Source: a virus
Taxonomy: Duplodnaviria > Heunggongvirae > Uroviricota > Caudoviricetes
Virus record (IMG/VR): IMGVR_UViG_3300040801_001810
Location: 38,194 to 102,193 of that record
DNA length: 64,000 nt
Reading direction: 5' to 3' (one strand)
In this document: positions 40,036-63,999 of the stretch, piece after piece
How the letters are laid out: each line of letters opens with the position of its first letter
How positions within the stretch are numbered: the stretch's first letter is position 1
The notes under the pieces: generated by a model
The model's input: the letters and a program-made list of their open reading frames with translations, nothing else
Databases searched by the model: none
What the model was told of the DNA's origin: nothing
Translations under genes and position numbers: made by a program

Positions 40036-40303
40036 TATTTTTCTCCAAATATCTAATTTGATTATAGTGTGTTCTATATATGTAATCAAATTTAAGCATA
40101 GTTAATACTCGCTGATTTATAGAACTAGGAAGGCCGCTTGGACTAATAACATATGCTGTCCCAGACGAATCTATTTGTTCTAATATACCAGAGTAATGTG
40201 TTTGACCTTCTTTTTCAAAGCCAAGTAGCTCAATTAAATTATCATAGGCCAATAATAATTTATCATTAATTTCTTGTGATAATAAGCTATACGAATTTCT
40301 CAT
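40028..40303 (-). CDS. hypothetical structural-module protein
   Basis: 91 aa, coupled to neighbours. Confidence 0.7.
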   Translation of the reverse strand: MRNSYSLLSQEINDKLLLAYDNLIELLGFEKEGQTHYSGILEQIDSSGTAYVISPSGLPSSINQRVLTMLKFDYIYRTHYNQIRYLEKNNG

Positions 40304-43300
40304 TATGTGTCCCTATTTACTATAAATTTAAGAGAGTCAACTCTTGGAGCTAGACTGCCTTCTTCATCACTCTGTAATTCTAGTTTATATAAGAATCTAC
40401 TATTAGTATCGTCTATAGAAGATACTTTCCTGTATGAAATAGAGTAGAAAGCTGGAAGATTCTCAGCTGTAGGGTAAAATAAAAATCCATTATTATCATC
40501 AGTAACAGAAACATATCCAGTTGAACTATATTCAGCTATATCTGAAGCTGTTGCTTGAGCAAGCCAAGCTCCGCACCCAACTCTAGAATCTGTATACAAG
40601 GCTCTAGGATCATAATCACCAGAATATAATAGATATGTATGTGTAGGACTAAAATCTATATTCAAAGGATGACCAAAAGTACTATGATGATTATAAAAAG
40701 ATACCCCAGTATAGTTAGGATAGTCTGGTAAAACAGCACCTTGATTCCAAGTATTATCGATAACACTTCTATCTCTTTTGTATATAACGCCACTAGAATC
40801 AGACCCAGTTGTGTAAATTATTGGTCCTAATGTGGTCCATCCTGAAACACCAGAATAAGTAATTGTGCCTTCTCTAATCCAGTGACCAATATTTTTAGTT
40901 CTTGCATTATTACTTAGATAATATCTTTTATTAATAGAATCAAAATAGTATCCAGGAAATATATCCTTTGATGGAGCCTTTACTACAACAAACTTTTCTC
41001 CTCGGGAATTCTGTTGTATAGCAGCACGATTGTTATTATTCATAGGAGTATCGTATATTAGAGTACTTAAATCTACCATTGATATTGCTGTAATTTTGGA
41101 TACTAATTTAACATAGGGAGTCACTGATATAGTACTCTCTTGGAAACGATCACTTTCATATGGAACCCAGTTATTAGCACAGAAACCAGTATCTTCATCA
41201 CTAGCACAAAAGATTGTAACTTTAAAATGTTGATCACCAGTAGTATTTTCATCTAGGGCAAAGGCTATTGTAAATAGATTTCCATCAGGATCAATAGTAT
41301 CTATCTTTCCTGTCTGTAGATTCTCTACAGTTATAGTCTTAATAATAGGAATATTTCTTTGATCTGTTACATTATTGTTCTCTATTGTAACTTGAGGATC
41401 AGTTGCTCCTGGTGATATAATAGCATATCCAGTCCAAGTAGATAGATAATTGTTTCTAATTCTATATTGATATTTATAGTCAAAAGTAACTGTAGTTGGA
41501 TCCAAGTCACCCCTAGTGGAATCTAAATTACTTAGTTTAATTCCAGTTAAGGTACCATCCGTGTACTGAAGCTGATCTTTGTATTCTGAATCTTCTAAAA
41601 CCACAGAGGTACCATTAACCTTAATCTCAGATATTGAATCTACTACATATTCCTCATTAGTTCTTAGATTATCAGTTATTTTAAGTGTATAACCAGACCA
41701 AGTAGAACCAGTACCAGAAGGAGTAACATTATTTTTAACTCCTATCTCGTCTATCCAGCTAGATTTATAGCTCCAAGCAAAGTTAACAGGATAATATTTA
41801 TCGTTTCCTATAACAGGTCTTTCTTGATAGGCAAATAATTTAACAGTATTGTCAATAATAACATCATTATATCCAAACTTATATATTTTATAGTAAGGAA
41901 TATTATTGAAATAATAGTCGGGTAAGTTCTCTTCTGCTAAAACAAGTCCACTTATATTTATAGTTGATAATCCAGTAGGAGTCACATAGTCAGAATATGG
42001 TCTCCACCATCCATTAATAGATGAATCGTATTCACCAAATCTAATAGTTCTACCAGTAGAACCCACATAACCAAAAGGATATCCTGCATTATACTCGTAG
42101 CCAATCCATTGTCCAGAATAAAGCACATTAGCTGTAATAGCAGGGTTTAATGTTCCGTCTATATCTTCAATATCATCCCAATCAATACTCTCTAAGGCAG
42201 CTACATCTACTCCAGATATCAAGACACCACTATCTACTAGAGGCTCTAAGGTAGCCCAGTCTGGGTTTGATGTATTAACCCATCCACTTACATATACACC
42301 AGAGTAATCATTATCACCAAATAATAGGTAAGAATCTATAGTAAAGATCGAATTATTTAATTTATCATGTTTAATTGTATTATCAAACTCTACTTTTTCT
42401 GGTATTTTACTTCCTTTTTCTCCTTTAAATTGGAGAGGAATCCAGTTAAAATCTACATTTTTATATAATTCTACACCGCTCACAGTATTTTCTGCATTCC
42501 ATATATCTGATAAGAATACTTTACCAGAATAGGTAGGAGAGAATTCATATATGTATGGTGACTTTGGATCAACTAAGTTTCCACGACTATCTAAAAACCC
42601 ACCACTAATAGTCATATCCTGAGCGACATATAAACTAGCTGCACAATTAGTTGGAAGCTGATATCTACCAGATGCCTCAATAGTAGCTACTACTGGGACT
42701 TCGTTACTATATTTATCAAAGGTAATTGGATTAGAATAAAGAACTGCTTTCTTTCTAGATGTTCCACGAGATATGGCTAGATTATTAATGACATATTGAT
42801 ATGTATTTGTTTCTGGAATATCAGGAGCATTTTTAATAAAGTCTAATTTGATGTGTGTTGTTTTAGTTTTAGGAAATGAGAATTTAACTTTATCATTTTT
42901 AATATCTTGAATAGAATTATTCTTAACGTCTTTCCATTGGAACCCGTCTTTATAATATAACCTAATAGAACCATGAGATATATCAGAATCAACATCTAAA
43001 GTTACAGCATTTATATCAATTTCTCGAGCATCAGCTGTAAGTTGTAGACTGACGGAAGTAACCAGTCTAGTTGGTCCATTGGTTGTAATTTTATAGAATA
43101 GTTGACGAGGATCCTGCTGATCAAGCATAGTCCCAGCATCTGTAGAACCAACATAACCATTCTCTATAATACGAGAATAGTTTTCTACTACATTAAACTC
43201 TAGTTTGGTACCGATATAATGATATAAAGAAAGAACATTTTCGTTCTCTCTTCTTATGGTAAATATACCAGCATCTGTATTAATTGGATCACTTCTATAT

Positions 43301-43719
43301 GCATTTATATTAGATAATTCATCAAAGTTTTCAGTAAAATTATATTCGAGATATTCTTCGCCTAGTTTACCATCTTCGATATCCTTAGCTCTAGTACCAA
43401 TTCGTCTTAGCTCTCGCTTTGAGCCATTATGTTCTTTAAGTGAGTTGGTTAATTGATCAAGAATATCTTTAGACTCGGCTTCTACAGAATCAAATAAAAT
43501 ATCTAGGTCATCAATAATATTAGAAAAGTTCTTTCTAATTTTATCGATATCAATGTCCTTCATTTTCTCATTTTTAGTAAGAGGTATGTAGTCAGTAGAA
43601 GTAATTTCTTCCATTTTCTTTAGAACTTCGCTTTTAGCAGGGATTTTTGGAGGACCATAATCACCTTTAATAAAAGCAGTGTATATCTTATCATATAAAT
43701 TTTTTTGTTTATAGTTCAT
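40303..43719 (-). CDS. large baseplate/tail structural protein
   Basis: 1138 aa; N-terminal coiled coil (IIDDLDILF), beta-rich body, C-terminal LAPRVDSLKF. Confidence 0.7.
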   Translation of the reverse strand: MNYKQKNLYDKIYTAFIKGDYGPPKIPAKSEVLKKMEEITSTDYIPLTKNEKMKDIDIDKIRKNFSNIIDDLDILFDSVEAESKDILDQLTNSLKEHNGSKRELRRIGTRAKDIEDGKLGEEYLEYNFTENFDELSNINAYRSDPINTDAGIFTIRRENENVLSLYHYIGTKLEFNVVENYSRIIENGYVGSTDAGTMLDQQDPRQLFYKITTNGPTRLVTSVSLQLTADAREIDINAVTLDVDSDISHGSIRLYYKDGFQWKDVKNNSIQDIKNDKVKFSFPKTKTTHIKLDFIKNAPDIPETNTYQYVINNLAISRGTSRKKAVLYSNPITFDKYSNEVPVVATIEASGRYQLPTNCAASLYVAQDMTISGGFLDSRGNLVDPKSPYIYEFSPTYSGKVFLSDIWNAENTVSGVELYKNVDFNWIPLQFKGEKGSKIPEKVEFDNTIKHDKLNNSIFTIDSYLLFGDNDYSGVYVSGWVNTSNPDWATLEPLVDSGVLISGVDVAALESIDWDDIEDIDGTLNPAITANVLYSGQWIGYEYNAGYPFGYVGSTGRTIRFGEYDSSINGWWRPYSDYVTPTGLSTINISGLVLAEENLPDYYFNNIPYYKIYKFGYNDVIIDNTVKLFAYQERPVIGNDKYYPVNFAWSYKSSWIDEIGVKNNVTPSGTGSTWSGYTLKITDNLRTNEEYVVDSISEIKVNGTSVVLEDSEYKDQLQYTDGTLTGIKLSNLDSTRGDLDPTTVTFDYKYQYRIRNNYLSTWTGYAIISPGATDPQVTIENNNVTDQRNIPIIKTITVENLQTGKIDTIDPDGNLFTIAFALDENTTGDQHFKVTIFCASDEDTGFCANNWVPYESDRFQESTISVTPYVKLVSKITAISMVDLSTLIYDTPMNNNNRAAIQQNSRGEKFVVVKAPSKDIFPGYYFDSINKRYYLSNNARTKNIGHWIREGTITYSGVSGWTTLGPIIYTTGSDSSGVIYKRDRSVIDNTWNQGAVLPDYPNYTGVSFYNHHSTFGHPLNIDFSPTHTYLLYSGDYDPRALYTDSRVGCGAWLAQATASDIAEYSSTGYVSVTDDNNGFLFYPTAENLPAFYSISYRKVSSIDDTNSRFLYKLELQSDEEGSLAPRVDSLKFIVNRDT

Positions 43720-43727
43720 AACATACC

Positions 43728-45098
43728 TTATAGATTAAAAAATTGATTTTTATCAAATACTAAACATTTATAATCATGAACCTCAGGAGGAGCAAATTGA
43801 TTATTAGTTAATTTAGATAGATCAAAAACAATCTTAACTCTAAAATTATTAATAGTAGATCCATAATCTATATATTTAATACTACTATTTTCTACATCAG
43901 TTTCAGGAGCGGCATCAAATATAAATAGTTTAGGTACTAAAACTCCATCTATTAGTTCATCATTCCTAGTAATAGGTGATATTGGTTCCCATTGATTTGC
44001 ATTAAATTCAACATAATATTTAATAACGTCATATGACATAATATTTGGATAAGTAGGAATAATTTCTTGAACCTTAAGAGAAAAAGTATACATCTCAAAG
44101 TCCAATGCATATTGATTAGAGATATATGTACCCTGTTTTTGATAGGAATTCTCTTTGATCGCTATATCATCTATTCCTAAACTTAGTCTTCTTCTATCTA
44201 TAATATAAGGATTGTCAATAGTAATATCGTCTATTAGTTTAATTTGATCTCTGTTTGGATTTGTAAAAGTTTGATTATCTAAGTTACCAAGATAGTCTGT
44301 TCCAATTAGTTTCTGATGATTTATCTCTATCTTAGCTATATCTGACTGAAGTAATGTAGGTCCCATATTAGCAAGACTAAAAGTATAAATTGCTGGAATT
44401 TTGGAGCCAGATATCTGGTCATTATAAAACGGAAGACCAAACGAAATACCACTACTCATAATACCAGACGCATGACTCTGCCAGTCAGTGAAACCACTTG
44501 CATATACACCATTAGCAGAATATTTAACTTCTATTTGATAGGGATAACCATGAGGAACACCACTATATGCAACATCATTAGAATTTGCGATTGTTCCCCA
44601 TTTAACATTATATGTTATTTGGTTTTGATTAACCATATATCCACTAATTACTACGTTTTCTGGTCTAAGATTACCAGGATAGGAATATACTCCACTAGTA
44701 TTACTTCCAAAAGACTGATATACATCTAATTTCTGAATCCAGAATAGATCAAAAGATGTATTTTCCCAAGTTCTATCTTCGATTTTAATTGGATTAACTA
44801 TTAATTGATCAGTTTCATCAGTATTATTAATTATAGTAGTAAAATAAAATCCGCTATTTAAATCAGTAGATCTATTAGTTCTGGTAAGATAACCGCTAGC
44901 CTGAAGATCAGAAACACTTGCACTATGAGGAGCAATCATTATTCTAACTTCTTCAGTAGGATTAATATCAAAAGGAATAGTTGTTCCACTTGGTACAACA
45001 TCAAAATAGATATAAGAATCGCTTTTATTTCTAGGAGCGAGCTTTAATCTAAGATCAGCTATATCTGTTCCAAGAGTTACATTAAAGAAATTTGCCAT
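43728..45098 (-). CDS. putative baseplate/tail structural protein
   Basis: 456 aa; IKYYVEFN..WEPISP, C-terminal PPEVHDYK; Ser-Gly-rich N-terminal half. Confidence 0.65.
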   Translation of the reverse strand: MANFFNVTLGTDIADLRLKLAPRNKSDSYIYFDVVPSGTTIPFDINPTEEVRIMIAPHSASVSDLQASGYLTRTNRSTDLNSGFYFTTIINNTDETDQLIVNPIKIEDRTWENTSFDLFWIQKLDVYQSFGSNTSGVYSYPGNLRPENVVISGYMVNQNQITYNVKWGTIANSNDVAYSGVPHGYPYQIEVKYSANGVYASGFTDWQSHASGIMSSGISFGLPFYNDQISGSKIPAIYTFSLANMGPTLLQSDIAKIEINHQKLIGTDYLGNLDNQTFTNPNRDQIKLIDDITIDNPYIIDRRRLSLGIDDIAIKENSYQKQGTYISNQYALDFEMYTFSLKVQEIIPTYPNIMSYDVIKYYVEFNANQWEPISPITRNDELIDGVLVPKLFIFDAAPETDVENSSIKYIDYGSTINNFRVKIVFDLSKLTNNQFAPPEVHDYKCLVFDKNQFFNL

Positions 45099-45101
45099 AG
45101 T

Positions 45102-50777: not shown

Positions 50778-53038
50778 TATAGATTCCTAGTAATATTTAA
50801 TGGAGCAATATTTGCGTATGCGCTTAGAATACCAAGATCAGCATATCCGCCTGTGCCGCCCGCATAATGATTGTTTGCATCAATAATAGTAGAGCCAACC
50901 TTTGATTGACCTAAGTTAATTGTATTTGAAAAGTTATCATAGTTATTAGTAGAAGTAACATCTATAAGACTAATAATTTCATCAGCTATAAATATACATC
51001 TAGCAAAGTCAGTACCAAACCAAGTAGCTGCCTCACTTTTAGTAGCCAGAGAGCTAACTACAACAAAGTCTTCTTTTAATAATCTGCTAGTATTGCCAGA
51101 ATATCCAACATTTTCTATAAATGATTGTAGTGCCTCTTTTCTAGCAGATACGATACCAAATGATATTTTATTAAAACTACTCTCTTGAGAAGAAGGCTTA
51201 ATTGCTAATGAGTACAAGATAACAGAATTATTAAGTGCACAAGAATATCTTAGAACAAAATTAGCTCGTTCAGAATCTGTGATATCATGCATATATAATA
51301 GTCTACTATTAAGAAAAGATATTTTTGAATATATCTCTTCATTATATGTACCATTAGTATATATGCCAATTGTATCAGCAAGATAAGGATCAATAGGAAG
51401 ATCTAATAATATAAATGTTCCTGGTCCCCAGTCACTAAAGTTACTATAAGAACTAAGATCTATTTTATAGATTGGTTCTTTTCTTATATGATAATTATTT
51501 TCAACAATAGGAACATCCTTATTCTTAACATTAATATACCAGTTACATGTTGTAGGACCAGGAGTCTGTTGACTAGTAATTAATGATGCAGAAATTAATG
51601 CCTTATCATTAAGTTTATATCCAACTGAATCAAAGGCTGCTTCTTTTGTAACGTATCGTTCTCTCTTTGGTTCAATTGACCAAGATCCAACCTCAAATTT
51701 AACAGTGTTTTCAAATGAATACTCTACAATATTAACAGGTGGGAGAATAACTTTTTCTATCTCTTGTAGTATCTCTTCTATATTTCTTGTCTCTTCGATT
51801 AAAGTAACAATCTTATTATACAGAGATGTATTACTATCATTAATAGGAGTAGCTAGATTTTCATCTAGACTAGATCCAAACTTAATAAGTTCATATCTTC
51901 TATCACCCAAATCATTTTGTATTTTTGAGTCAACACTTGATTCTTTATTAGATGCCGAATCTAAGAAAGTATATTCTTCTTGATTAAATACTATTCGTAA
52001 TTGCTTGACTTTAATCTTTGTAATGTTATTAAACATTAGTAAATCAAATGATCGACCCCTTACAGAATAATTAGTAACATCCCATGTAGAAGGATTAGTA
52101 GTTAATAGTGGATCCTGAGCTACAAACTCAGCAACTTTCCACTCATCACTATCATTCTCTTTATATAATACTGCATCTATAGTAACTGCTTTATCACCAT
52201 AAGTATCTATATCCAATCTATTAATTTCATTTGGATAGTTATAATTAATATCAACAAGAGAAACTATACCTCTATAATTTCGATTAATGGGTACATCTGA
52301 CGAACCAATATTAACAATCATTAATGGAATTTCTGGACTTAGTACTTCTTCTTTCCATAGACCATTAGCTAGCATATCTTTTGGTCCACTATTAGAATAG
52401 TTATCCTCAAAAGTATTTAGAGTATTAGTTGTATGAATTATATTAGATCTATCGCTCTGTTCTGGATATGTTGTAGAAGAAACACTTTTAATAAGATATG
52501 ACTTATTCTGAATGTCTACCTCCAACGGATTTAAGTACATAAATCCGCTCTTTTTATCTATCCATATATTTCTAGTTAGATTTGCGCTAATATCTGTATA
52601 GAATGATTCATAGTATGATTCATCTGAAGGACTAGCATCATGTATAAAAGATCTAGTAAGATTAAGTTTATTCCAAAGATCTCTAATTCTCTTCTTAATA
52701 ATCAAGAAGTAATTCTTATTTCTTTGTAAGTTAAGAGATAATACTTTATCTACTAATTCAAGATCAGAATATAAAGAAGCTAGATCTATATATAGATTTT
52801 CAAACATATCATTAAGATCGTCTGATCTAACAACAGTTTTAGACTTAGCTATATATTTGCCTACGTTAAATAACATTCCTCCTATAGCATTAAATCTATC
52901 CATATAAGAAGAAATAACTGCATCTATAGCTTCTTCGGATCTAAGTAATTCCATATTGGAAACATCTCTAATATTTTGAGATATTATATTATTTTGGACA
53001 TTCTTAATGCTACTTTGAAAGTTAAAAGTTTGATTCAT
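50777..53038 (-). CDS. putative baseplate structural protein
   Basis: 753 aa; SDDLNDMFENLYIDLASLY motif. Confidence 0.65.
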   Translation of the reverse strand: MNQTFNFQSSIKNVQNNIISQNIRDVSNMELLRSEEAIDAVISSYMDRFNAIGGMLFNVGKYIAKSKTVVRSDDLNDMFENLYIDLASLYSDLELVDKVLSLNLQRNKNYFLIIKKRIRDLWNKLNLTRSFIHDASPSDESYYESFYTDISANLTRNIWIDKKSGFMYLNPLEVDIQNKSYLIKSVSSTTYPEQSDRSNIIHTTNTLNTFEDNYSNSGPKDMLANGLWKEEVLSPEIPLMIVNIGSSDVPINRNYRGIVSLVDINYNYPNEINRLDIDTYGDKAVTIDAVLYKENDSDEWKVAEFVAQDPLLTTNPSTWDVTNYSVRGRSFDLLMFNNITKIKVKQLRIVFNQEEYTFLDSASNKESSVDSKIQNDLGDRRYELIKFGSSLDENLATPINDSNTSLYNKIVTLIEETRNIEEILQEIEKVILPPVNIVEYSFENTVKFEVGSWSIEPKRERYVTKEAAFDSVGYKLNDKALISASLITSQQTPGPTTCNWYINVKNKDVPIVENNYHIRKEPIYKIDLSSYSNFSDWGPGTFILLDLPIDPYLADTIGIYTNGTYNEEIYSKISFLNSRLLYMHDITDSERANFVLRYSCALNNSVILYSLAIKPSSQESSFNKISFGIVSARKEALQSFIENVGYSGNTSRLLKEDFVVVSSLATKSEAATWFGTDFARCIFIADEIISLIDVTSTNNYDNFSNTINLGQSKVGSTIIDANNHYAGGTGGYADLGILSAYANIAPLNITRNL

Positions 53039-54978
53039 TATCTAAGCTCCATAATTTGTCCATTAAATTCACCAGATGAAGTAGGTAGAAGTACATAGTT
53101 AGTCCCAGCTGATATATATTTTCTAATAACTTTGTCTAGATAGTAATTAAACTCAGAGAGACCTTTCTTTTCAGCATCTGTATTATTTAAAAAGCCTTTA
53201 TAATGATTAATCCATTTTTGCTTTTCAATTTCTATTAATTCTACAGGAAGATGTATCATTACTATACTTCCATGCGGTAGAGCATCTCCATCGTAGTATC
53301 CGATATCAGCATACCATTGCTTTTCTTTACTATGTTCTCCAAGAAGAGATACAAACCACGAATCTAGTTGATTAAAATCATCTATGCCGCCAGCAGATCG
53401 TCTTGCGTCTGTAAGTTTTACTATGTCAGGACTAAGTCTATTAAGATCCAGATCACATATAGTAAAGAAGTCTGCTCCTGTCCACGATACACCTACTGTG
53501 TCCTCCTCACCAAGAGGCAATAAAGCGTAAGCTGTTCTAGATGCTTCGGCTACTGATGAATCGTATATATACGGATAATATGTTCCTGATGTTCCATCCC
53601 ATGGTTTAACTGCAATACCAAGACCGTCTCTATACCCAGAAATATGATATGAGCTGATAGAATCATTAACTTTTGGATTAAGCTCAAGGTTTTCTATTAG
53701 TATCCATCCGCTACTATCAAGATAAAATGATAATTCTATCTCGTCTGTTGGATCAATATCTTTATTAAGAGCAATAAATCCTTTCTTCCTATCTATAGAA
53801 GAAATCTTAATATCAGACCTAGTAACACCATTTACATCAATAGCCCAAGTTCCAGAAGGAGATGTATATAATAATGATTCTTTATCATATAGATCGACTG
53901 TATAGTTAGGGTACGTATAAATAGATTCATTAAGATAAATTGGTGCTTCTTTAACTTTCAGTATATTAGAATCAATTATTCTAGGAACTATATTAGTTAA
54001 AGGAATATATTCCCCAGATGTGTAATTATCTTCCATGTTATAAAATTTTTCAGTTGACCCAGTATAAAAACCAGAAGCCTCAAGGAAAGAACCTATATTC
54101 AGTCTAAGCTTCCATTGAGTTTCTTTATCAGTTAAATATGAATCTTGCCCTTTAATAGATATTAGATCTAGAGCATGAAGTCTTTTATAAGGGTCCTTAA
54201 CAATATGCAGAGGAGTTCCAGTATTCTGTATTGTGCTTGCTGGGGGAATAACTAGTCCAGAAGATGTAATACTAAAATCATTAATAGTATATATAGGTCT
54301 AATTTCTATAAGTTCTTTTTGATAAGAAGAAATATTATTAACTATCTTATTATATTCTATTGTATAGAATGTCTCTTTATTATAAAACTCATAAGGCAGA
54401 AGGACTCTAATCCTATGAGCACTTACCTGTCGGCTAGTGCTCCAAGTAGTAGAAGAGTATCTAGAGTTAGACTGACTAAGAAGATCGTAGCTATACTGTA
54501 TTTTATATTCTGTTGGTTTTAGTTTTGTCTCATTATTTTTGTATATGTTAACATTAACTATACCAGAAAGAGAAGAGTAGACGTCGAATAGTGGTTCATA
54601 TTGATAAAATAATGGTTTACCATTTTGCCCAGCTGAATTAAACTCTGTTACTAAATAATGTAATTTATAATTATATGAATTAGAATAAGGATAATGATAT
54701 ACTGGGTATAAGCCACTATTTTCATTGTAATAGATGGTTTCTACAATCTGATAGTCAGTTGTATTTTCATATATCTCTTCATCTCGTTTAATAAATGATA
54801 TAATTTTATTAGGACTAAACCCAGTATACTCTAGGGCAGCTATAGGAAAGTCGCCAGGATTGTATGGTGTATTTTCTACAACAAGATATGGATTATGTGT
54901 GTAAGGTTTACCAAAATTAACATAATAATCAGGAGATCCCACACCAACTACATTTCCTGTAATTGTAACAGTGCTCAT
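53038..54978 (-). CDS. putative baseplate/tail structural protein
   Basis: 646 aa; C-terminal DARRSAGG...DIGYYDG...IHLP...IRKYISAG, a pattern recalled from large-myovirus baseplate-region proteins (not search-verified). Confidence 0.65.
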   Translation of the reverse strand: MSTVTITGNVVGVGSPDYYVNFGKPYTHNPYLVVENTPYNPGDFPIAALEYTGFSPNKIISFIKRDEEIYENTTDYQIVETIYYNENSGLYPVYHYPYSNSYNYKLHYLVTEFNSAGQNGKPLFYQYEPLFDVYSSLSGIVNVNIYKNNETKLKPTEYKIQYSYDLLSQSNSRYSSTTWSTSRQVSAHRIRVLLPYEFYNKETFYTIEYNKIVNNISSYQKELIEIRPIYTINDFSITSSGLVIPPASTIQNTGTPLHIVKDPYKRLHALDLISIKGQDSYLTDKETQWKLRLNIGSFLEASGFYTGSTEKFYNMEDNYTSGEYIPLTNIVPRIIDSNILKVKEAPIYLNESIYTYPNYTVDLYDKESLLYTSPSGTWAIDVNGVTRSDIKISSIDRKKGFIALNKDIDPTDEIELSFYLDSSGWILIENLELNPKVNDSISSYHISGYRDGLGIAVKPWDGTSGTYYPYIYDSSVAEASRTAYALLPLGEEDTVGVSWTGADFFTICDLDLNRLSPDIVKLTDARRSAGGIDDFNQLDSWFVSLLGEHSKEKQWYADIGYYDGDALPHGSIVMIHLPVELIEIEKQKWINHYKGFLNNTDAEKKGLSEFNYYLDKVIRKYISAGTNYVLLPTSSGEFNGQIMELR

Positions 54979-54990
54979 TATCTTTCCTTA

Positions 54991-55413
54991 TTAAATATCA
55001 CTATCTTGAAAGTACTTTGGTGTTATGTTAAGGATGTCTCCGCTTGTTTTTGGACCAGCTAGATTAAGAGGATATAACTCTGTCCATAAAGCATCATTAC
55101 CAGATATAGTAGTACTAACAAAATATCCATTCACGCTTGACCAAGTACCTGAAGCGTTAAAGACTACGTTGTCGCCTTGTATATAAGGACTTACACCTGA
55201 GTTTACAAGCCATGTAGTACATAACTGGCGAGCATATCCTACTCCAGATACTTCAGTAATACCAGAGGCTGTTGGCAATTGATATGTTTCTGCTGGTCTA
55301 GTAGTATTAGTTAGAAGTCCAACGTAAACTCCACTAGTAACAGTAGCAATATAATTTTTAATTGCGTCAAGAATAAATACTTGACCATTTTGTAATAAAA
55401 TACCACTTGCCAT
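54991..55413 (-). CDS. phage tail-fibre-associated small structural protein
   Basis: YVGLLT..P...TEVSGVGYARQ...VVFNASGTW...SGD pattern common in phage tail modules. Confidence 0.75.
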   Translation of the reverse strand: MASGILLQNGQVFILDAIKNYIATVTSGVYVGLLTNTTRPAETYQLPTASGITEVSGVGYARQLCTTWLVNSGVSPYIQGDNVVFNASGTWSSVNGYFVSTTISGNDALWTELYPLNLAGPKTSGDILNITPKYFQDSDI

Positions 55414-55422
55414 TTAGTCTCC

Positions 55423-55800
55423 TTAGTATTCTAGTATTGGCTCTAATGCCACTAAGTCATTGGCGCTCAGTAACTTAGCCATGCTATCAGATGTTTTAAA
55501 TTTATTATTAATTGGTAACTCTATATCTTTATTAAACAATTCATCTACTTTGGCAAAAAGTTCTGGAGTTTTGCTTTTATCTTCCATCTGAGGAATATTA
55601 CCATCCCATCCAGTAACACCGTAATTGGTAAACATATCGTCTCTAACTTTAAATATTAAAGTAGCCTCTTCTCTAATATGTTTAATTACCTTAGCCAGTG
55701 CTATTGTATCAGATATTGAATCAAGCGTTATATTACTTAGTTTATTTAGCGCTTCTCCAAATGACTTATCAAAAATCAAATTTGTTTTAATTGTAACCAT
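55423..55800 (-). CDS. phage protein (DUF1617-like, possible tail-fibre chaperone)
   Basis: ALNKL...IALAKVIKHI...ELFNKDIEL...LSANDLVALEPI; AAGGAG RBS favours ATG 55800. Confidence 0.6.
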   Translation of the reverse strand: MVTIKTNLIFDKSFGEALNKLSNITLDSISDTIALAKVIKHIREEATLIFKVRDDMFTNYGVTGWDGNIPQMEDKSKTPELFAKVDELFNKDIELPINNKFKTSDSMAKLLSANDLVALEPILEY

Positions 55801-55886
55801 TCGCATCTCCTTATAGTATAAGTATATTAAAATTTTCGCTATACAGCGATTTAAATATAGTATAATTCTTTGTTCATCAATAACTA

Positions 55887-58628
55887 TTAATATAATGTAT
55901 TAACAGACCCACCCGAATCTTTATATACAAGGGCACTTTGTGTAGTAGAATAATATATTGAATTATTAACAGCACCAGCATCAGTTAGTTCGACTGGTTG
56001 TATACTTCCGTCGCCTCTAATTAACATACCTGTGGCACGACTTTCATATATTTTAAAATGGTCTTCCACTGGTTTAATACCAATAGTAGGAGCATACGTT
56101 CTACTAATTTTTACATAATAACCACTAGCTATGTCTGATGCTACCTCTGCTGTTTCTCCAGCAGCCCATGCTCCAGGAGCATTAAATGATATTTGACCAG
56201 GTTGTTGGAAGCCATTTGTACCATCTGATAGTATTGTAAGGGTAGCCCATGTACCATCACCAGTAGAATACTGAAAAGTAGGAACAATGCTTTTAGAACT
56301 ATTAGTTGCTAAGTCTACCTCGATTAATTCAAATGTACCAGAGGCTCCAATTAAAATATAATCATTTACAGCATTAAATAAAGTAATATCATCAGAGCTA
56401 GCCTCTAAGAAGGCAGTTCCTGAAGTAGGAGTACCAGTAACTCTATCATATACATTACCAGTAGCATCAGTTATATTATAGCCAAAATCAGGATCTATTG
56501 GCTGTGCTCCTTGTACTTCTAGCGCATTAGAAAAGCCAGGTAATACTTTATATGCTGTGGTTGTAATAGAAGAACCGTTGGCTATTCTTGCTAGATATGC
56601 TGAAACTTCAGTAGTACTATCTCCAGTAGCCTCGGTTGTTACAACTCTAGATACTATTCCATTACCAATAAGTCCTGAACCTAGAGGACCACTTAAATAT
56701 TCAGAATATATTGAGGTTATATTACCATAACCATTTGCCTCTGCTTCAAAAAAGCCTCCACGAAGAAGATTTGCTCCAGCTTCTAATTCAACCTCAAATA
56801 AATTATTAGTATAATTATTACCTTTCCAATCTACAGAATGTAAGTCAAAGTGGCCGCTATTACTTAACATAAATTCCATATGATATCCATCACCAATTAC
56901 AACTTGAGGATGCTCGATAATATAATAACCAAAATTAGAAATGTCAAAATCCCAACCCATAGTGTGTAAAATAGCATTACCAGAATCTATGACATCAGTA
57001 ATTTCTGCCATTGCTCCTTGATATTCACCAGTTCTAATTATAATCCATTTTCCTAAATATCCAGAATTAAACACTCCACTTGGATCAGTCATTAAAGCAT
57101 CATAAGTTCCACCAGTATAATCATAACTGGCAAGATTAGAAGAAAGATCAGCGTCAACAACTAGTCCTTCTTCAGGCCATAACATTAAGCTTCCTCCGCC
57201 AACGATTGCGTCAGATCTAATACCATTGGATGTATAAATTCTACCATTAGCTTGTACATATGCTTGGGCAACACCTGAACTATTAACCCATGTTTGTAAA
57301 TGGCTTACCTGACCAGAAGCACCTACCACAGACATAGGAACTTCGTTAGTAGCAAGTGAAAGAACTTGTAGATTACCAGAGGATATTATATTATTATCAA
57401 AAAGAAACGTATGCTCATCTTCTAACCATGTTAAAGTTCCAGAAGAATTATATCCAATAAAAGAAAGACCATAATCAACTCCATTACTGCCTATTCCTAC
57501 GCTTAACGCATTACTAGCAATAACAGTTCCGCCTTCTAGATAGATATCTTTACTACTATTTGTATCTATTCTTAAAGTTCCATCGGCTTGAGCATAAAAT
57601 AGACCAAAGTTTGTATTATCATATGCTAAACATAATTGAGCAGTTCCATCATCCTGAATCTGCAATACGCCTTGGTTTGGAGTACAATTGATACCAACCC
57701 AGCCATCACCATCAACCTTAATCCCTTTTGAATTACTCCCAGCACTAGAGATTACCTGGTTTCCTAGTGCTATTCCACTACCAGTAGTAAGCTTATCTAC
57801 AGTTAGTAGTGTTCCGCTAACGGTTACGTTATCAACAAAGCTAAAGGGGGATCCAGCAAAGTATGATTGACTGGACATGACAAATTGTTGTTCTACTGTT
57901 TCATTAAATATGTCAAAGGTATTAATAGCAAATTCGCCATTAACAGTATCATTACCATGGTATGTTTTAATTCTAGAACCAACATAAACTGCGCCTTCAG
58001 ATGTTTCTTCAAGAGCAAAGTCAAGAGCAACACCAAGACCAGCTCCAGGAGAACTAGTAGATGCTCGTGCTAATACTAATGCAGTCTTAACATCATTAAT
58101 CCCATCTTCAATACCAATCTGTAATGCACCACTTTGGTTATATAATTGGTCTCCAATAAATACTGTATCTGCATCTTGATATATTAAACTATCTGTTAAT
58201 GTTCCTGAAGAAGTCCATAGAGGAAGATAATTTAAGGTTCCAGACCCAAAGGAACCAATAGCTCCTATGTCAGAAAGAACTTCAGCAGCAGTTCTGTATT
58301 GAATAAAACCACCAGAATGAACTAGAAATGCATCAACATTAACTGGGCAAGCATCAGCAGTTAATTTTAAATTACCATGAATGTTGGCATAAAGTCCACT
58401 ATCGGATATAATAGAATTACGAAGTGTAGTTCCTCCCCATTTAGATAGATATCCAGAAGTCATTATAGATGGATCATATAAATTAAAATACACTATACCA
58501 GAATTAGAAGTCATATATCTCATTAAACCAGAGTCAGTATCGTATACAGTTTCTCTAGGTCTTTGCTTCAAGTTACACTGGGCAGTAGTGCCTTCATATC
58601 CTAAGTAAATACCTGAATAGCTAGCCAT
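55887..58628 (-). CDS. tail fibre protein
   Basis: 913 aa, G/S/T rich; repeated SG(Y/T)L..W...TL.(N/D)S.I units; DGWVGINCTP..LQI fibre motif. Confidence 0.75.
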   Translation of the reverse strand: MASYSGIYLGYEGTTAQCNLKQRPRETVYDTDSGLMRYMTSNSGIVYFNLYDPSIMTSGYLSKWGGTTLRNSIISDSGLYANIHGNLKLTADACPVNVDAFLVHSGGFIQYRTAAEVLSDIGAIGSFGSGTLNYLPLWTSSGTLTDSLIYQDADTVFIGDQLYNQSGALQIGIEDGINDVKTALVLARASTSSPGAGLGVALDFALEETSEGAVYVGSRIKTYHGNDTVNGEFAINTFDIFNETVEQQFVMSSQSYFAGSPFSFVDNVTVSGTLLTVDKLTTGSGIALGNQVISSAGSNSKGIKVDGDGWVGINCTPNQGVLQIQDDGTAQLCLAYDNTNFGLFYAQADGTLRIDTNSSKDIYLEGGTVIASNALSVGIGSNGVDYGLSFIGYNSSGTLTWLEDEHTFLFDNNIISSGNLQVLSLATNEVPMSVVGASGQVSHLQTWVNSSGVAQAYVQANGRIYTSNGIRSDAIVGGGSLMLWPEEGLVVDADLSSNLASYDYTGGTYDALMTDPSGVFNSGYLGKWIIIRTGEYQGAMAEITDVIDSGNAILHTMGWDFDISNFGYYIIEHPQVVIGDGYHMEFMLSNSGHFDLHSVDWKGNNYTNNLFEVELEAGANLLRGGFFEAEANGYGNITSIYSEYLSGPLGSGLIGNGIVSRVVTTEATGDSTTEVSAYLARIANGSSITTTAYKVLPGFSNALEVQGAQPIDPDFGYNITDATGNVYDRVTGTPTSGTAFLEASSDDITLFNAVNDYILIGASGTFELIEVDLATNSSKSIVPTFQYSTGDGTWATLTILSDGTNGFQQPGQISFNAPGAWAAGETAEVASDIASGYYVKISRTYAPTIGIKPVEDHFKIYESRATGMLIRGDGSIQPVELTDAGAVNNSIYYSTTQSALVYKDSGGSVNTLY

Positions 58629-59139
58629 TGTTTTCCACCTTCTTCATATATCTTTCGATTCCATACGATGCTAAGAGAGCTTCATCTCGTTCTACTACGT
58701 AAGAACTATCATAACAATCGGAGTCAAAATAATTAACCTTTTTAACTCTAATGATTTTTCTAAACCACCAACGAATATCTTCTAGATTTCGTTGTTTCTT
58801 TTCTGGATATAAAGACTTAAAAAAATCAGTACAACCATTAACATATAACATCATTTCATCTGGAGTTCCAGAGGGGTGCTTCTTAAAATAAGGAAGACCA
58901 TTTTCTATTATTTTAGGAAAAGCGAATAGCTCAATATCACAATCAATGTAAAATAAATTAGGATTAGAGCAACATAAATCTAATATGTAATCGTGTCGAT
59001 CTTTTATAATATCTGAAACTGGCCTACGTTTATTTATTTTATATGAGTGTCCAAGACTAGTTACTATTTTCTTAGTCCCAGCCATCCTCATCTTCGTAGC
59101 TTCCGATAATCGACCGTGTGTCACTTGTATGATTTCCAT
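58621..59139 (-). CDS. small GT32-like DxD glycosyltransferase (paralog B)
   Basis: PNLFYIDCDIE, PYF, YVN..FFK, EK.QRN, KIIR.KKVN; start MEIIQ after GAGAGG. Confidence 0.6.
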   Translation of the reverse strand: MEIIQVTHGRLSEATKMRMAGTKKIVTSLGHSYKINKRRPVSDIIKDRHDYILDLCCSNPNLFYIDCDIELFAFPKIIENGLPYFKKHPSGTPDEMMLYVNGCTDFFKSLYPEKKQRNLEDIRWWFRKIIRVKKVNYFDSDCYDSSYVVERDEALLASYGIERYMKKVENNG

Positions 59140-59617
59140 GAATAAGTGCCTCTCTTGCAGTAGATGTAAATCTAAAATGCATATATAATTCTGTATCAAT
59201 AATATTAACTTTCTTAGTTCTTATTATTTTAATTGGCCACCCAAATACAGTTTGAATATTTCTTTGTTCTTTTTCTTTAAATATATCTTTAAAGAATTTC
59301 ATATTTTCATTAACATAAAAAAGACAATGATTAACTTTGCCATGAGCAGTTCCAAAGTATGGTTGGCCGTCTTTAAAGTCAAATTTAGGAACTTCATTAA
59401 AAACAATATCGTCATCTATATATAACATGTTAGGTCTTTTACATGCTAGCTCGTTACGTAAGGTATCAGTAGTTATAATTGGGTGTTCGTTTTCAACTTC
59501 AGGAATAAAAATACGCTCATAGTTAGGAAACATTTCTCTAATTTGGTCCATACAGTATTCGTAATTTCTAAAATTAGCTCCTTTATCTCCACACCAAATT
59601 TGGACTGTTTCCAACAT
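59072..59617 (-). CDS. small GT32-like DxD glycosyltransferase (paralog A)
   Basis: VQIWCG, YCMDQIREMFPNYE, TDTLR, PNMLYIDDDI; start MLETV at 59617. Confidence 0.7.
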   Translation of the reverse strand: MLETVQIWCGDKGANFRNYEYCMDQIREMFPNYERIFIPEVENEHPIITTDTLRNELACKRPNMLYIDDDIVFNEVPKFDFKDGQPYFGTAHGKVNHCLFYVNENMKFFKDIFKEKEQRNIQTVFGWPIKIIRTKKVNIIDTELYMHFRFTSTAREALIHGNHTSDTRSIIGSYEDEDGWD

Positions 59618-59618
59618 A

Positions 59619-61274
59619 TTAATACATCCTATCATAAGTATTATTTCTATCCATTGCATCAAATATATCAAATAATGATCTATCAGCATCTTCAAGACTG
59701 GCATCTATTATATATTCAAATGTTTCTGACTTAACTCCGTATATAAAGTTAAATCTAACTATATTAGAATCGTATGTTTTTCCTTGCCAAGTAACTCGGG
59801 CAAAACCTAAACAGTTATCTATGGAAGGAATAAAGTCACATTCATGATGAATTATTTTTGTACCAAACCTATTGGTAGTATAGTCCCCCCACTTGCGCCA
59901 GCCACCAAGGTAATTAAACCAGAGTTCTATAGGAAGATTAGGGACATTAATTAGCCTATTTCTTCTATAAATAGCTACTTTGGCTTGTATATTATCAACC
60001 CCAGACTTATATGGAGACACTCTTTGATTAGTTAAAACAATAGAAATTGGTTGGGTTATTCTTTGAGTTGGGGCAGTATATATAGGAATGGTAGTTACTT
60101 CATATTGGTAACAACCAATAGAATAAATTCCTTCTCCTATACTATAAAGATTACCATCTAAATCAGTTAAAGATAAAGCTGGTGCCGATCCTAAATTCCA
60201 AAGACCAGCAGATAGTCCTTCAGTGGATCCATTTAATCGTAAATAATTAGCGTTTCCTGATTCAATTGACTTAAATTCTACCGTAGGATCTACATTATTT
60301 CCAATATCTGTCCATGGAAAACTTACTCCAAGGTTTGATCCAAATGCACAACCAGAGTATCCCCAATCATAAATATCTTGGGAGTCATAACAATTTGTTG
60401 CATATCCAGTAAGATCAGATGCATCATACATTGATCCTCCCCAAGAATCTCCAGAAAAATCTGGAGAGCAACTAACGACTATATTATCTAGATAGTAGTT
60501 AGTATTAGTATCATCACTCAAATTTAAAGCATAATAATATACATTAAAGAAAGTACAATGTTCTATGTATGCTTCATACGCACCAATAGTACCATGCAAA
60601 TAATTGAACATGGTAATTCCATCATCAGCGATGTTACTAAACCTACAAGAAGAAATAAAAATATTTCCAGAACTTTCAGCGTCATAATTTCTATAATCTA
60701 TTCCATCATCCGATACTTTATCAAATTCACAGCGAGTAATATTAACTGTATCTATTCCACCAGCAGCATTTATAATCCATAAAGAATCTGCTACTACCCA
60801 ACCTTCTGGATAAGGCATATTTTCTTCAGTAAATCTACAATCTTCAAAAGTTATTGTTTTAACTCCTTCAAGATATATTAAATCGTCTCCCCAATCTGAT
60901 TCATTACTAAATATTATATTTCGAGCAGTAAAACTGAGAGGAGAATCTTCATAATTACTTCCTCCCCATTGATATATGGCAGCACCAAAATCATAATCAG
61001 TTACAGTATATCTATATCTAGAAGTATTTGGTCTAGATTGAATTGTAAGAGAATATCCTGAAAAATTTGTATAATCTTGATCATATACTCCACTACATTC
61101 CACATCAGAAATTAATTCAAATATCATATCATCAGTAACAGTAGCATCATATCCTCCAGAAGGAGAATTACACCAATTACTCATACTAGCAAATAACCCA
61201 CTGTATTCGCCTTGTTCTAAAGGGGTTAAATTATTCCAAGCAGTTATGGTACCTAATGCTATCTTTATCGACAT
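59619..61274 (-). CDS. right-handed beta-helix (pectin-lyase-like) virion protein
   Basis: Repeating ITFEDCRF, VNITRCEFDKVSDDGI, ISSCRFSNIADDGI, IEHCTF rungs; SIGCYQY; separate basic C-terminal domain. Confidence 0.75.
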   Translation of the reverse strand: MSIKIALGTITAWNNLTPLEQGEYSGLFASMSNWCNSPSGGYDATVTDDMIFELISDVECSGVYDQDYTNFSGYSLTIQSRPNTSRYRYTVTDYDFGAAIYQWGGSNYEDSPLSFTARNIIFSNESDWGDDLIYLEGVKTITFEDCRFTEENMPYPEGWVVADSLWIINAAGGIDTVNITRCEFDKVSDDGIDYRNYDAESSGNIFISSCRFSNIADDGITMFNYLHGTIGAYEAYIEHCTFFNVYYYALNLSDDTNTNYYLDNIVVSCSPDFSGDSWGGSMYDASDLTGYATNCYDSQDIYDWGYSGCAFGSNLGVSFPWTDIGNNVDPTVEFKSIESGNANYLRLNGSTEGLSAGLWNLGSAPALSLTDLDGNLYSIGEGIYSIGCYQYEVTTIPIYTAPTQRITQPISIVLTNQRVSPYKSGVDNIQAKVAIYRRNRLINVPNLPIELWFNYLGGWRKWGDYTTNRFGTKIIHHECDFIPSIDNCLGFARVTWQGKTYDSNIVRFNFIYGVKSETFEYIIDASLEDADRSLFDIFDAMDRNNTYDRMY

Positions 61275-61429
61275 TATTTTCTATCTTTTAGTTTAATAAT
61301 AATTGAATCAATTTCTGTTTTAATATTATTTGATATTTCATCTATTGATTCCCCTTGTTTAATTCTTCTTTTAACTTCTATAAGTAACCGTGGGTTAAGT
61401 CTAGTTTTTTGCTTTTTTTGTTCATTCAT
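61274..61429 (-). CDS. small HTH-like protein (not in ORF track)
   Basis: 51 aa, MNEQKKQKTRLNPRLLIEVKRRIKQGESIDEISNNIK...; AGGAG RBS; TAATG overlap with the next gene. Confidence 0.6.
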   Translation of the reverse strand: MNEQKKQKTRLNPRLLIEVKRRIKQGESIDEISNNIKTEIDSIIIKLKDRK

Positions 61430-61431
61430 AA

Positions 61432-62964
61432 TTATCTCCTATTAGAGTCAGTTGCTAGGTATACAAAGAACTTGTCGAAAGCTAGGTTTTGTTCATTTAA
61501 TGGATTAAAGTCATAATGTAATAAAGCCCCACTTGGAACTAAAGTATGGTCCCACACTAAGGTTGCTTCCGTATAGTCACTTGGTAGATTAGCTGTTATT
61601 TTCTTTGTTCTATAATCAATTCTATAGTCGCCCATATTAAGAGGTAATTCAAACCCGCCTTTTATAGTAGAGATATTAGGTCTTTTTCTATATATGTTAT
61701 ACCAAAACTTATCTCCATCTGGTCCAGTAAAGTAGCAGTAGTCTTCATATATACCAGAAAGATATTCATCTCTTTCTACATTCATATAGCTATCGTAGTA
61801 CCCACTCTTAGCTAGTATCGTATACATCCCTTTTTCTAATCCACTTGGAATATCTGCTTCTAAATATCCTGATACAGGGCTAAAGTTAATCTGATTAATT
61901 CTCTTATCTTCAAAATGATAATATGGAAGCCCGTCTACATAAAATTTTCCTGGGTATAATTTAAGATACCATTCCTGAGTTTCGCCTGACTGCTCTACTA
62001 GTTGTTCAGGATAAAAAGTATATGATAGTGGTTCTACTCCACCTCTAAAGTTATTAAATACCACCCCGCTGGTGAATGTATTATTAGGTGATAGTGCATC
62101 ATAAAAACTTGGGATCTCTCCACTACCATAGTTCCTATGTACATCCCATATAACAGTTCCTGTTCTAGCTTTATCCCATGTATGCCTAAACTTCTTATCA
62201 ATCCATTCTTTAAGAGAGTAGGTAAAGCTTTTAGCTATGCCTGTGGTCTTATCGTAATAAGTCTCATCTTTAATAGTAGTTGGAATTTCATTTAGAGTAT
62301 AGAGAACAACCTGACCAGAAAGATTAGGATCATTATTTGCAATTCTATATGTAAATCTATCATCTAAAGTATCTGTTTGATTATTCATATCTGTATATCT
62401 AACAAGAGTAGATACATTATCTTCGTTCTTTATCTCTCTCCAATACTCAAACTTAACCTGTGTTTGATCTGCTAGAGGAGCAAGAACTTCTACAATATTT
62501 GAATAACTATAATTTTTATATCCAGATATATTAGCAAATCTAGAATTCTGCCAAACTATAAATCCTTCTTGATTACTCTTAGCAAGCTCATACTCAGCTG
62601 ACCATATCTGAGGACCTATGTTTTGCCAGTTACCACTAGAGTCTTTATAAAACCCTGATATATCTTGGTTTGTAACATTCCCTGAAGGTATTGGTTTATA
62701 TGATAACTCAAAGATAGTTTTATTAATTACGTTATAAGGAGTAAGGCCAAACTCGCTGCTTACACCATTAAGTAATCCTTGCTTATCAACATCTCCTGGA
62801 TAATCATGATTAGCATAAATTCTATCCTTGATCTCAAGATTGTTCTCAAATGGTTTTCTAACATAGCGAAGAGATTTATATTGATCATCCCATGTAGCTA
62901 TACCATTGACTAAACCGAACACATCGATATTAGACCAAGTTTGCTTCTTATTTGGTTTTGGCAT
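61432..62964 (-). CDS. putative tail/baseplate structural protein
   Basis: 510 aa in the structural operon; Ser-Gly and aromatic rich. Confidence 0.65.
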   Translation of the reverse strand: MPKPNKKQTWSNIDVFGLVNGIATWDDQYKSLRYVRKPFENNLEIKDRIYANHDYPGDVDKQGLLNGVSSEFGLTPYNVINKTIFELSYKPIPSGNVTNQDISGFYKDSSGNWQNIGPQIWSAEYELAKSNQEGFIVWQNSRFANISGYKNYSYSNIVEVLAPLADQTQVKFEYWREIKNEDNVSTLVRYTDMNNQTDTLDDRFTYRIANNDPNLSGQVVLYTLNEIPTTIKDETYYDKTTGIAKSFTYSLKEWIDKKFRHTWDKARTGTVIWDVHRNYGSGEIPSFYDALSPNNTFTSGVVFNNFRGGVEPLSYTFYPEQLVEQSGETQEWYLKLYPGKFYVDGLPYYHFEDKRINQINFSPVSGYLEADIPSGLEKGMYTILAKSGYYDSYMNVERDEYLSGIYEDYCYFTGPDGDKFWYNIYRKRPNISTIKGGFELPLNMGDYRIDYRTKKITANLPSDYTEATLVWDHTLVPSGALLHYDFNPLNEQNLAFDKFFVYLATDSNRR

Positions 62965-62982
62965 TAAAATAATCCTTAACTA

Positions 62983-63999
62983 TTAAGAGTATGTAGTACA
63001 CTTTAATGTATTGCCATCTGAAACATCACACCAGACTTGATATTCTCCAGTAGGAGTTGTAGTTGGTAATGATTTAAATTCAAGATAGTTACCAGCATTC
63101 AAAGTTATTGTATTAACAGCAGTTAAACCAATATAACCATTACCTTGTAATGAATACAAATTAACATAAGGAGCAGTAAGAGACATGAATCCATCTGTTC
63201 CATGACAACCAACATCAAATCTAGTACCATATCCATAAATATTTACATTCATATGAGCATACCAAGTTTCAATATACATTTGATCATAAGACTTTAATTT
63301 AAGTCTACCACTAGCTATTAGTTGTAATTGACCTGATGCTCTCATATCTATGGCATCATCAACCATTTTCATATAAGTTTGATTATTAGTAGTATAAAAT
63401 TCTGATGATACTCCACTAGCATAAATAGAATTTGAATATAATGTACTAGATGCTTTAATATTCCCATTAACATGCAGAACTTCATCTGGGGTTCCAGTTG
63501 ATCCAAATAGAGTTTTTCCATCAGGAAATATTTTCATTCTAACAACATTATCAGTCTTTAATGCTACATATCCGCTACCATTAATAACTACTTGACCAGG
63601 AGATTGTAAAAACCCTGAAGCCTCATTGCCCCAAATACCAATCCAACCACCTCGTGATATAGTAGTATTTCCTCCACCACATAAATATAAAGTACCATTA
63701 TCAGACCCATCATCAGTATCTGGTTTAATTATATATGAATTAATACTAAAGATAGGATCCCAGGTAGCAACATGTTTCCATGTTATAGTTCCATCAGTAA
63801 CATATATATTACTTAAATAACCAGAGTTAACTGGAACTTCTGATCGTCCTAGAAAGTGGCTATTGACAAAGTTTTGAACTAGAGAAAGTTGATATCCTAA
63901 GGAATTTCTCATCGAGTTCTTATTAATTGGTGTCTGATCGTCTCTAATATATGTTACAACATTTTCTGGTGTATATTGACCACTAGTCCAAATTGTGTC
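62983..63999 (-). CDS. tail fibre-like protein (5' end outside window)
   Basis: Frame is open to the window edge (DTIWTSGQYTPENV...MRNS). RMKIFPDGKTLFGSTGTPDEVLHVNGNIKAS fibre motif. Confidence 0.7.
   Translation of the reverse strand, partial: DTIWTSGQYTPENVVTYIRDDQTPINKNSMRNSLGYQLSLVQNFVNSHFLGRSEVPVNSGYLSNIYVTDGTITWKHVATWDPIFSINSYIIKPDTDDGSDNGTLYLCGGGNTTISRGGWIGIWGNEASGFLQSPGQVVINGSGYVALKTDNVVRMKIFPDGKTLFGSTGTPDEVLHVNGNIKASSTLYSNSIYASGVSSEFYTTNNQTYMKMVDDAIDMRASGQLQLIASGRLKLKSYDQMYIETWYAHMNVNIYGYGTRFDVGCHGTDGFMSLTAPYVNLYSLQGNGYIGLTAVNTITLNAGNYLEFKSLPTTTPTGEYQVWCDVSDGNTLKCTTYS

Follow-up and report, generated by a model that had tools for sequence, protein, structure and literature searches.

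An excess of Ser-Gly dipeptides on the outer virion proteins of a jumbo-phage clade, a possible acceptor motif for phage-encoded O-glycosylation

Some phages put sugars on their own particles: according to the summaries of Freeman et al. 2023 in PMC12363180 and PMC13313380, phage-encoded glycosyltransferases (GTs) glycosylate the virions of mycobacteriophages Che8, Corndog and Myrna. Experimental evidence that phages glycosylate their particles with enzymes of their own is limited to a few actinobacteriophages; in our searches of the literature, no Ser-Gly sequon turned up for O-glycosylation in bacteria or phages, and likewise no acceptor signal for phage-virion glycosylation. Here we analyse the Ser-Gly (SG) dipeptides of the virion proteins encoded in a window of 64,000 nucleotides (positions 38,194 to 102,193 of IMG/VR record IMGVR_UViG_3300040801_001810), which is part of the complete 230,193-bp genome of an uncultured jumbo myovirus (G000; terminal repeats, ~33% GC). 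The outer proteins of this phage and its relatives have two- to sixfold too many SG pairs, and these pairs are probably, though not provably, the attachment sites of a virus-made sugar coat. The resemblance to the mycobacteriophages is that their own soluble GTs are proposed to coat capsid and tail proteins with sugars that shield the particle; the system described here differs in belonging to an uncultured low-GC jumbo myovirus, in having a motif in at least 14 protein families, in its large lineage-specific island, and in being known from sequence alone.

The phage encodes GTs of its own, namely two conserved GT-B/GT4 enzymes (17635 and 35096) and the GT9- and GT8-like products of island genes lying between them:

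17635..19125, (+) strand: conserved GT-B glycosyltransferase at the left island border, with a weak Pfam Glycos_transf_1 match
19125..35096, (+) strand: ~16-kb lineage-specific island of sugar-biosynthesis and GT genes
35096..36250, (+) strand: conserved GT4 glycosyltransferase at the right island border, adjoining a gene for 95 amino acids (aa) and ClpP

Three described systems offer points of comparison. The autotransporter heptosyltransferases AAH and TibC are cytoplasmic, GT9-like enzymes that O-glycosylate many serines in short loops between the strands of the AIDA-I/TibA passenger. The placing of the acceptor serine in a short inter-strand loop is shared, in that predicted models of two proteins put 18 of 20 and 8 of 8 SG sites in coil, whereas the conserved enzymes here are GT-B/GT4 and not GT9-like; the GT9-like gene of this phage (21901-22758) is without a homolog in the SG-rich relatives G001, G002, G003, G006 and G007 (relatives were collected by capsid-based searches, and several long contigs were taken whole). 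In eukaryotes, the glycosaminoglycan signal is Ser-Gly with acidic flanks, read by xylosyltransferases. The preliminary description of this DNA had invoked that signal as a precedent, and a Ser-Gly dipeptide as an O-glycosylation signal is indeed the common element; however, the acidic flanks are missing (Asp/Glu is raised only mildly around the phage sites, at −4 and −2), the phage flanks are hydrophobic strand residues, the enzymes are unrelated and the compartment is cytoplasmic, so that the precedent reduces to an analogy. As to flagellins, we know of no simple sequon, and chlorovirus glycans are N-linked, which differs from the O-linkage proposed here. Flagellin islands with Maf and the capsids of chloroviruses and giant viruses have dedicated soluble enzymes beside variable sugar genes (PMC11339370; PMC9614988). 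The Maf flagellin and chlorovirus capsid systems are like the present one in their surface Ser/Thr target and variable sugar genes, and the 17635 enzyme has a chlorovirus GT as its best solved relative (NY-2A B736L, 3oy2, E 1e-6). In the search for Maf itself (MptE-like, PF01973), the only match scored 22.9 bits, short of the cut-off at 34.6, and fell on a portion of gene 28953; this gene is without a homolog in relatives.

The SG excess is carried by a run of virion genes on the opposite strand. Counts are given throughout as observed/expected SG, with the expectation taken from the composition of each protein and the significance from residue shuffles; ORF denotes an open reading frame:

40028..40303, (-) strand: 91-aa protein, SG 3/0.66 (small orthologous ORFs in L133 and L135, 3/1.0 and 4/0.5)
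40303..43719, (-) strand: 1138-aa fibre or baseplate-distal protein, SG 16/6.2
43728..45098, (-) strand: 456-aa virion protein, SG 10/2.0, with every site inside the N-terminal 230 aa
45102..53038, (-) strand: four virion proteins without SG excess (45102 10/8.3, 48617 1/1.9, 50019 0/0.7, 50777 3/3.2)
53038..54978, (-) strand: 646-aa virion protein, SG 10/3.8
54991..55413, (-) strand: 140-aa fibre- or neck-accessory-like protein, SG 8/1.3, or 8 of its 13 Ser
55887..58628, (-) strand: 913-aa Gly-rich fibre, SG 25/11.2
59619..61274, (-) strand: 551-aa right-handed beta-helix (tailspike-like) protein, SG 9/4.3
61432..62964, (-) strand: 510-aa virion protein, SG 13/2.3
62983..64000, (-) strand: ~350-aa virion protein crossing the window edge, SG 7/3.6 for the whole ORF

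In the nine enriched window proteins pooled, SG occurs 100 times against 35.1 expected (z=11), which makes it by a wide margin the most deviant of the 400 dipeptides; residue shuffling gave p<=0.0005 in six proteins. The enrichment first noticed by hand thus persists after composition correction, and the hand counts proved exact when every ORF was recounted. Control dipeptides in the same nine proteins are at expectation (GS 36/35.1, TG 30/30.6, AG 16/19.9, NG 28/27.8, DG 28/26.7), and the remaining window proteins together have SG 27/37. The low counts first reported for non-enriched proteins also held on recounting: the PolB-like protein (4084) and the primase-helicase (12336) have one SG each, and the 48617 and 50777 proteins one and three. 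Sites are scattered along the proteins, and the residue after Gly is V/I/L/Y/F/T at 66 of 100 of them, both as originally described; the context is roughly [A/P]-S-G-[V/Y/T/I]-[L/Y/V/F], with L/Y/W/V/F at +2 after Gly, and Thr at −2 is raised only 1.8x (a weak T-x-S-G).

Two sources of the excess were ruled out. The Ser codons at SG (TCT/AGT/AGC/TCA) and the Gly codons are mixed in about the same way as elsewhere, so that the excess acts at the amino-acid level and is not a DNA-level motif. Nor is a common paralogous domain the source: the enriched proteins are not paralogs, and a segment of ~100 aa is common to just one SG-rich pair. Thr-Trp is the second most over-represented dipeptide of the SG-rich set (window 40303-63999; 18/6.1, partly as S-G-T-W); its excess is smaller in relatives (1.2-1.9x), and G007 does not show it.

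The preliminary description placed the feature at 40303-63999. The excess is present there, but the feature is larger and runs on in the genome past the window: two baseplate proteins just beyond the edge have SG 21/6.4 and 20/5.2, the tail sheath 14/7.0, an 856-aa fibre 18/8.2, a Big_5 Ig-like protein adjoining the capsid gene 7/1.6 and its 141-aa neighbour 5/0.9. At least 14 unrelated virion protein families are enriched, and the portal (2/2.7) and the capsid protein (4/2.2) are not. The excess is confined to outward-facing virion proteins or domains, namely those of tail, baseplate, sheath and head decoration. In the sheath, 12 of the 14 SG lie in residues 197-466, a variable outer insertion, and two in the conserved core (623-915), with a likewise distribution in three relatives; in the 1138-aa 40303 protein every SG lies in residues 350-1033, and the first 349 residues are free of it. 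Control virion families have SG ratios of 0.58-0.97, the non-late proteins of four genomes 0.95-1.08, and the baseplate, sheath, head and fibre proteins of phage T4 together 77/71.2, or 1.08, where SG ranks 96th. Three consecutive virion-module proteins of 2,027-2,389 aa (G000 109197-129684), which are probably internal or ejected proteins, are SG-depleted (7/10.1, 5/12.5 and 9/14.1; 21/36.7 together), and their orthologs in relatives have SG at or under expectation.

The same families are enriched across the clade. SG ranks first among dipeptides genome-wide in G000, G001, G002, G003 and G006 (z 5.8-7.6), and pooling of nine families gives SG ratios of 3.2, 3.0, 3.5, 2.8 and 2.7 in these genomes, respectively, and 2.0 in G007. 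SG-rich proteins have SG-rich orthologs (7/1.7, 6/1.4 and 5/1.9 for 43728; 13/3.3 and 18/3.8 for 53038; 14/4.7, 9/2.5, 15/3.4 and 12/2.7 for 61432), and non-enriched proteins have non-enriched ones; the orthologs of 45102, 48617, 50019 and 50777 are non-enriched in all genomes compared and serve as internal controls. A search with the 761-aa baseplate protein against 1.84 billion representatives returned just 55 relatives, of which 37 are long, and 33 of these show a 2.4-5.5x enrichment; for the 40303 protein, 56 of 56 database homologs are at 1.5-3.0x. The 55887 fibre has no ortholog in the compared relatives, and the 510-aa 61432 protein had zero matches both by tblastn against deposited phage genomes and in a pattern scan of IMG/VR.

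Structure predictions place the sites at a particular point of the fold. In the AlphaFold model of the 761-aa baseplate protein (predicted local distance difference test, pLDDT, 74.8), 18 of 20 SG lie in coil, and 45% of the SG glycines stand 0-2 residues ahead of a strand start, as compared with 17-19% for other Gly, other Ser and all residues. In the AlphaFold2 model of the 140-aa 54991 protein (pLDDT 80.7), 8 of 8 SG lie in coil, most of them in strand-strand connections; a fold search with this model gave weak matches, all to peripheral fibre, neck and baseplate accessory proteins (best, GP4 fibre I, 8jou), and the match of the protein to Pfam Gp80 fell under the cut-off. An alignment of 14 homologs of 54991 has the Gly nearly invariant, Ser as its commonest partner and one SG invariant. 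More generally, the Ser of SG is conserved at 0.45 as compared with 0.32 for other Ser, and the Gly is conserved like other Gly; a 31-sequence family has ~12 hot SG columns, one of them with SG in 28 of 31 sequences, and 63 singleton SG columns; and orthologs that lack SG at a site mostly carry TG, DG, NG or a gap. In the predicted models, the Gly of SG is a structural turn residue. Given that these glycines lie in coil before strands, what has to be explained is the lineage-wide preference for Ser before Gly, together with the steady creation of new sites.

Such a distribution could come about if SG were simply the clade's structural or compositional habit for tight turns before β-strands, with the serines unmodified and the link to GTs a coincidence. 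Several of the above observations speak for this explanation: the sites lie in coil and ahead of strands, TG, DG, NG or a gap stands where SG is missing, the Gly is conserved as any other Gly, and the flanks fit known turn-then-strand preferences; moreover, the GT association described below amounts to very few independent events. Yet we consider it unlikely, if worth keeping in view, as the turn formers NG, DG, TG and GG are not enriched in the SG-rich proteins, the T4 baseplate, sheath and fibres are at 1.08, and most sites are lineage-specific at a kept density, unlike fixed structural positions. The preliminary description had named a plain β-turn preference, shared equally by homologs from GT-less phages, as the outcome that would overturn it; the signal is partly a β-turn feature, in that the Gly is a turn residue, but only the Ser preference is lineage-specific, and homologs are not equally enriched.

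The inequality among homologs comes from lineages in which the excess is absent. Orthologs P0016 (2/2.4, with its NG at 13/4.8), P0031 (3/3.0) and P0126 (3/3.0; 57% identical to P0031) have SG at expectation, and at the hot columns P0016 keeps the Gly, preceded by N, E or D instead of Ser. In L145, L147 and P0126, the same folds have SG at about 1.0, again at odds with a structural habit; with N/D/E-Gly in the same columns, these orthologs indicate that the folds do not need Ser. P0016 sits on a 437-kb contig (L145, 24% GC), 39 kb of which were read: its baseplate and fibre orthologs come to ~1.1 (29/26.1, a hand sum of per-gene values), as against comparable hand sums over the matching region of about 2.5 for G000 and about 2.3 for G002, and its orthologs of 40303, 43728 and 53038 have SG 6/3.6, 1/1.3 and 3/2.4. 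Trees of three proteins make this SG-null phage the sister of SG-rich G002 (98/94 and 92/92 support) and put SG-rich genomes in both main branches of the clade; SG-richness therefore looks ancestral in these trees and would have been lost at least twice. GC content is ruled out as the driver, and with it a compositional habit loses ground, since G002, at 27.7% GC, is fully SG-rich and sister of the SG-null phage. On whether all homologs are equally enriched, then, the answer is that they are not, two lineages being at ~1.0, although the part of that question that concerns GT-less homologs draws on one lineage.

What distinguishes the SG-null phage at this locus is the missing GT module. Its syntenic region runs through homologs of 40303, 38851 and 38495, then homologs of ClpP and 36282, a few small ORFs and a homolog of 16555; the segment of GT, island and GT4 is absent at this site, and tblastn finds neither GT in the 39 kb read. 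In the SG-enriched relatives both border enzymes are kept: the 17635 gene is present in all SG-enriched long contigs, the 35096 GT4 is 34-61% identical in all SG-enriched lineages seen, and both enzymes fall within large virus-specific GT4 clusters. BLAST of the ~18-kb sugar cluster against relatives found almost nothing in common except these two enzymes, and hence only they can be the common reader of a sequon; the 17635 enzyme is a candidate for the priming or core enzyme. The expectation that SG would track with large GT clusters is supported in one respect, in that the module is absent at the syntenic site of one SG-null lineage, and not in another, as the ~18-kb cluster is mostly lineage-specific.

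The content and length of the island vary from lineage to lineage. Here it encodes GNAT, GT9, DegT, B12-radical SAM, GT8-like, methyltransferase, MptE-like (weak match) and RraA-type aldolase proteins, as well as radical SAM-SPASM, CMP-type cytidylyltransferase and HAD proteins, and the CMP-sugar route is found in this phage only among the compared lineages. The G001 island has GDP-sugar dehydratase/epimerase genes and B12-radical SAM enzymes; that of G002 has an amidotransferase, and that of L157 a formyltransferase and a GFO/IDH/MocA-family oxidoreductase. The G003 island has a GT2 and a UDP-GlcNAc-modifying set of three genes (CapD-like Polysacc_synt_2 dehydratase, UDP-GlcNAc 2-epimerase and RmlD-like reductase), which we take to resemble an L-FucNAc-type route. 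That every lineage has its own sugar pathway is what one would expect if the glycan were exposed. Contigs found by GT4-anchored scans were mostly too short to hold island and fibres together; between the two GTs, the island measures 16 kb in G000, 16 kb in G001, 27 kb in G006, 9 kb in G003, 7 kb in G016, 6 kb in G002 and 1.5 kb in G007, and G007, with the shortest island, has the weakest excess (2.0x vs 2.7-3.5x).

Several relatives carry altered forms of these genes. The conserved GTs are found fused in relatives, the 17635-type GT in proteins of 1,253, 1,232 and 873 aa and the G003 GT4 in a protein of 786 aa (G001 80286-84047, G002 92068-95766, G003 117243-119864 and 128737-131097); the extra domains could be acceptor-binding modules. 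A diverged GT4 paralog stands directly beside the GT4 in clade-B and low-GC lineages (L138, L140, G007 92905-93501, G016 18665-19741 and G017 2703-3575), so that the short-island forms still have three GT-B genes in a row. The CapD-like Polysacc_synt_2 dehydratase of G003 (L039:2702-4777) contains an intein with a LAGLIDADG homing endonuclease, as judged from Pfam Intein_splicing and LAGLIDADG_2 matches inside the split dehydratase match.

The GT module might have another target altogether, glycosylating the phage DNA or the host cell surface with no relation to virion proteins. It lies on the early/middle strand among replication genes, and hypermodification of DNA with diverse glycans is a known activity of GT clusters in phages (10.1101/2023.12.21.572611; PMC13326640), for which ThyA homologs, or a C5 methylase with a TET-like oxygenase, make the hydroxylated pyrimidines that receive the sugars (PMC13326640). 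A thymidylate-synthase homolog (PF00303) and a C5 DNA methylase (PF00145) are both absent from the complete 230-kb genome, with both controls positive, which weakens the DNA role; either target, moreover, would leave the disappearance of the SG excess without the module unexplained, and we give this explanation little credence. We regard it as similarly improbable that the selection for SG serines has a cause other than a GT, be it phosphorylation, acylation, ADP-ribosylation, a phage chaperone or assembly factor, or escape from a host sensor or protease. The data establish selection of Ser before Gly on exposed turns and not its reader, and ClpP adjoins the GT4; however, we found neither a candidate kinase nor another Ser-modifying enzyme whose occurrence follows the excess, and the GT module is the sole gene block seen missing at this locus in the SG-null sister.

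Because the excess is Ser-specific, limited to the outer surface, maintained through turnover and gone with the GT module in a sister lineage, an acceptor motif fits the observations best. We put it at about an even chance that SG is the preferred acceptor context of a phage-encoded protein O-glycosyltransferase; the glycosylation of the serines, the enzyme behind it and the purpose of the coat are inferred from these comparisons. Under this acceptor reading, a soluble phage O-glycosyltransferase, most likely the GT-B 17635 or the GT4 35096, would recognize Ser-Gly at the tips of tight turns that lead directly into a β-strand. It would work in the cytoplasm on virion proteins that are folding or already folded, and the variable enzymes of the island would then build on its first sugar to make a glycan particular to the lineage. 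Selection for a dense coat would maintain many SG on outward-facing domains and keep making new ones, and in lineages that lose the enzymes Ser would give way to Asn, Asp or Glu, with the structural Gly retained. It may further be, though we lean slightly against it, that uncultured phages have a simple SG O-glycosylation code at exposed turn tips, with a conserved GT-B reader and a glycan as variable as bacterial O-antigen.

A number of observations weigh against the acceptor reading. The SG position matches a type I turn with a Gly bulge, so that a structural origin of the motif is real. The comparison with the GT module consists of a single clean presence/absence contrast (L145 vs G002) and one graded contrast (G007); 39 kb of the 437 kb were covered, and the GTs of the SG-null phage could lie elsewhere; the second SG-null lineage (L147/P0126) is represented by contigs of 9-15 kb, none extending to the GT site; and G007 and G017, which have both GTs and a short island, are still at about 2x, making the dose relation a loose one. 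SG-poor lineages are among the most AT-rich (24-27% GC), yet G002, at 27.7%, is SG-rich. SG avoidance was not seen in non-virion proteins (ratio 0.95-1.08), and neither homology nor sequence searches against solved structures revealed the acceptor of either GT. The proposal of the preliminary description, that SG sites are acceptors for the phage's own GTs, is accordingly supported in part, by the restriction to outer proteins and by the two SG-null lineages, and is qualified by the mostly lineage-specific cluster and by the turn role of the Gly; the sugar on Ser is putative.

A two-residue signature thus marks the outer surface of a whole environmental jumbo-phage clade, and selection maintains it even as single sites come and go. 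Should the serines be glycosylated, the system would provide a sequon, a pair of candidate enzymes and, in the 140-aa protein, a small substrate carrying eight sites; glycan shields would become readable from metagenomes, and the differences among sugar islands between lineages would suggest that the surface chemistry of the phage is the object of an arms race. If the O-glycosylation code proves true, the extent of a phage's sugar coat would be predictable from its genome sequence alone.

Two further features of gene order were seen. Between the GT4 and the fibre genes, the window has a ClpP-family protease gene (36572-37114) and a gene (38148-38480) whose homologs include weak or faint HSP20 matches, an arrangement kept clade-wide, the SG-null phage included. 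The SG-null phage also has a radical SAM gene (L145:17322-18527) inside its baseplate/fibre module, where G000 has none.

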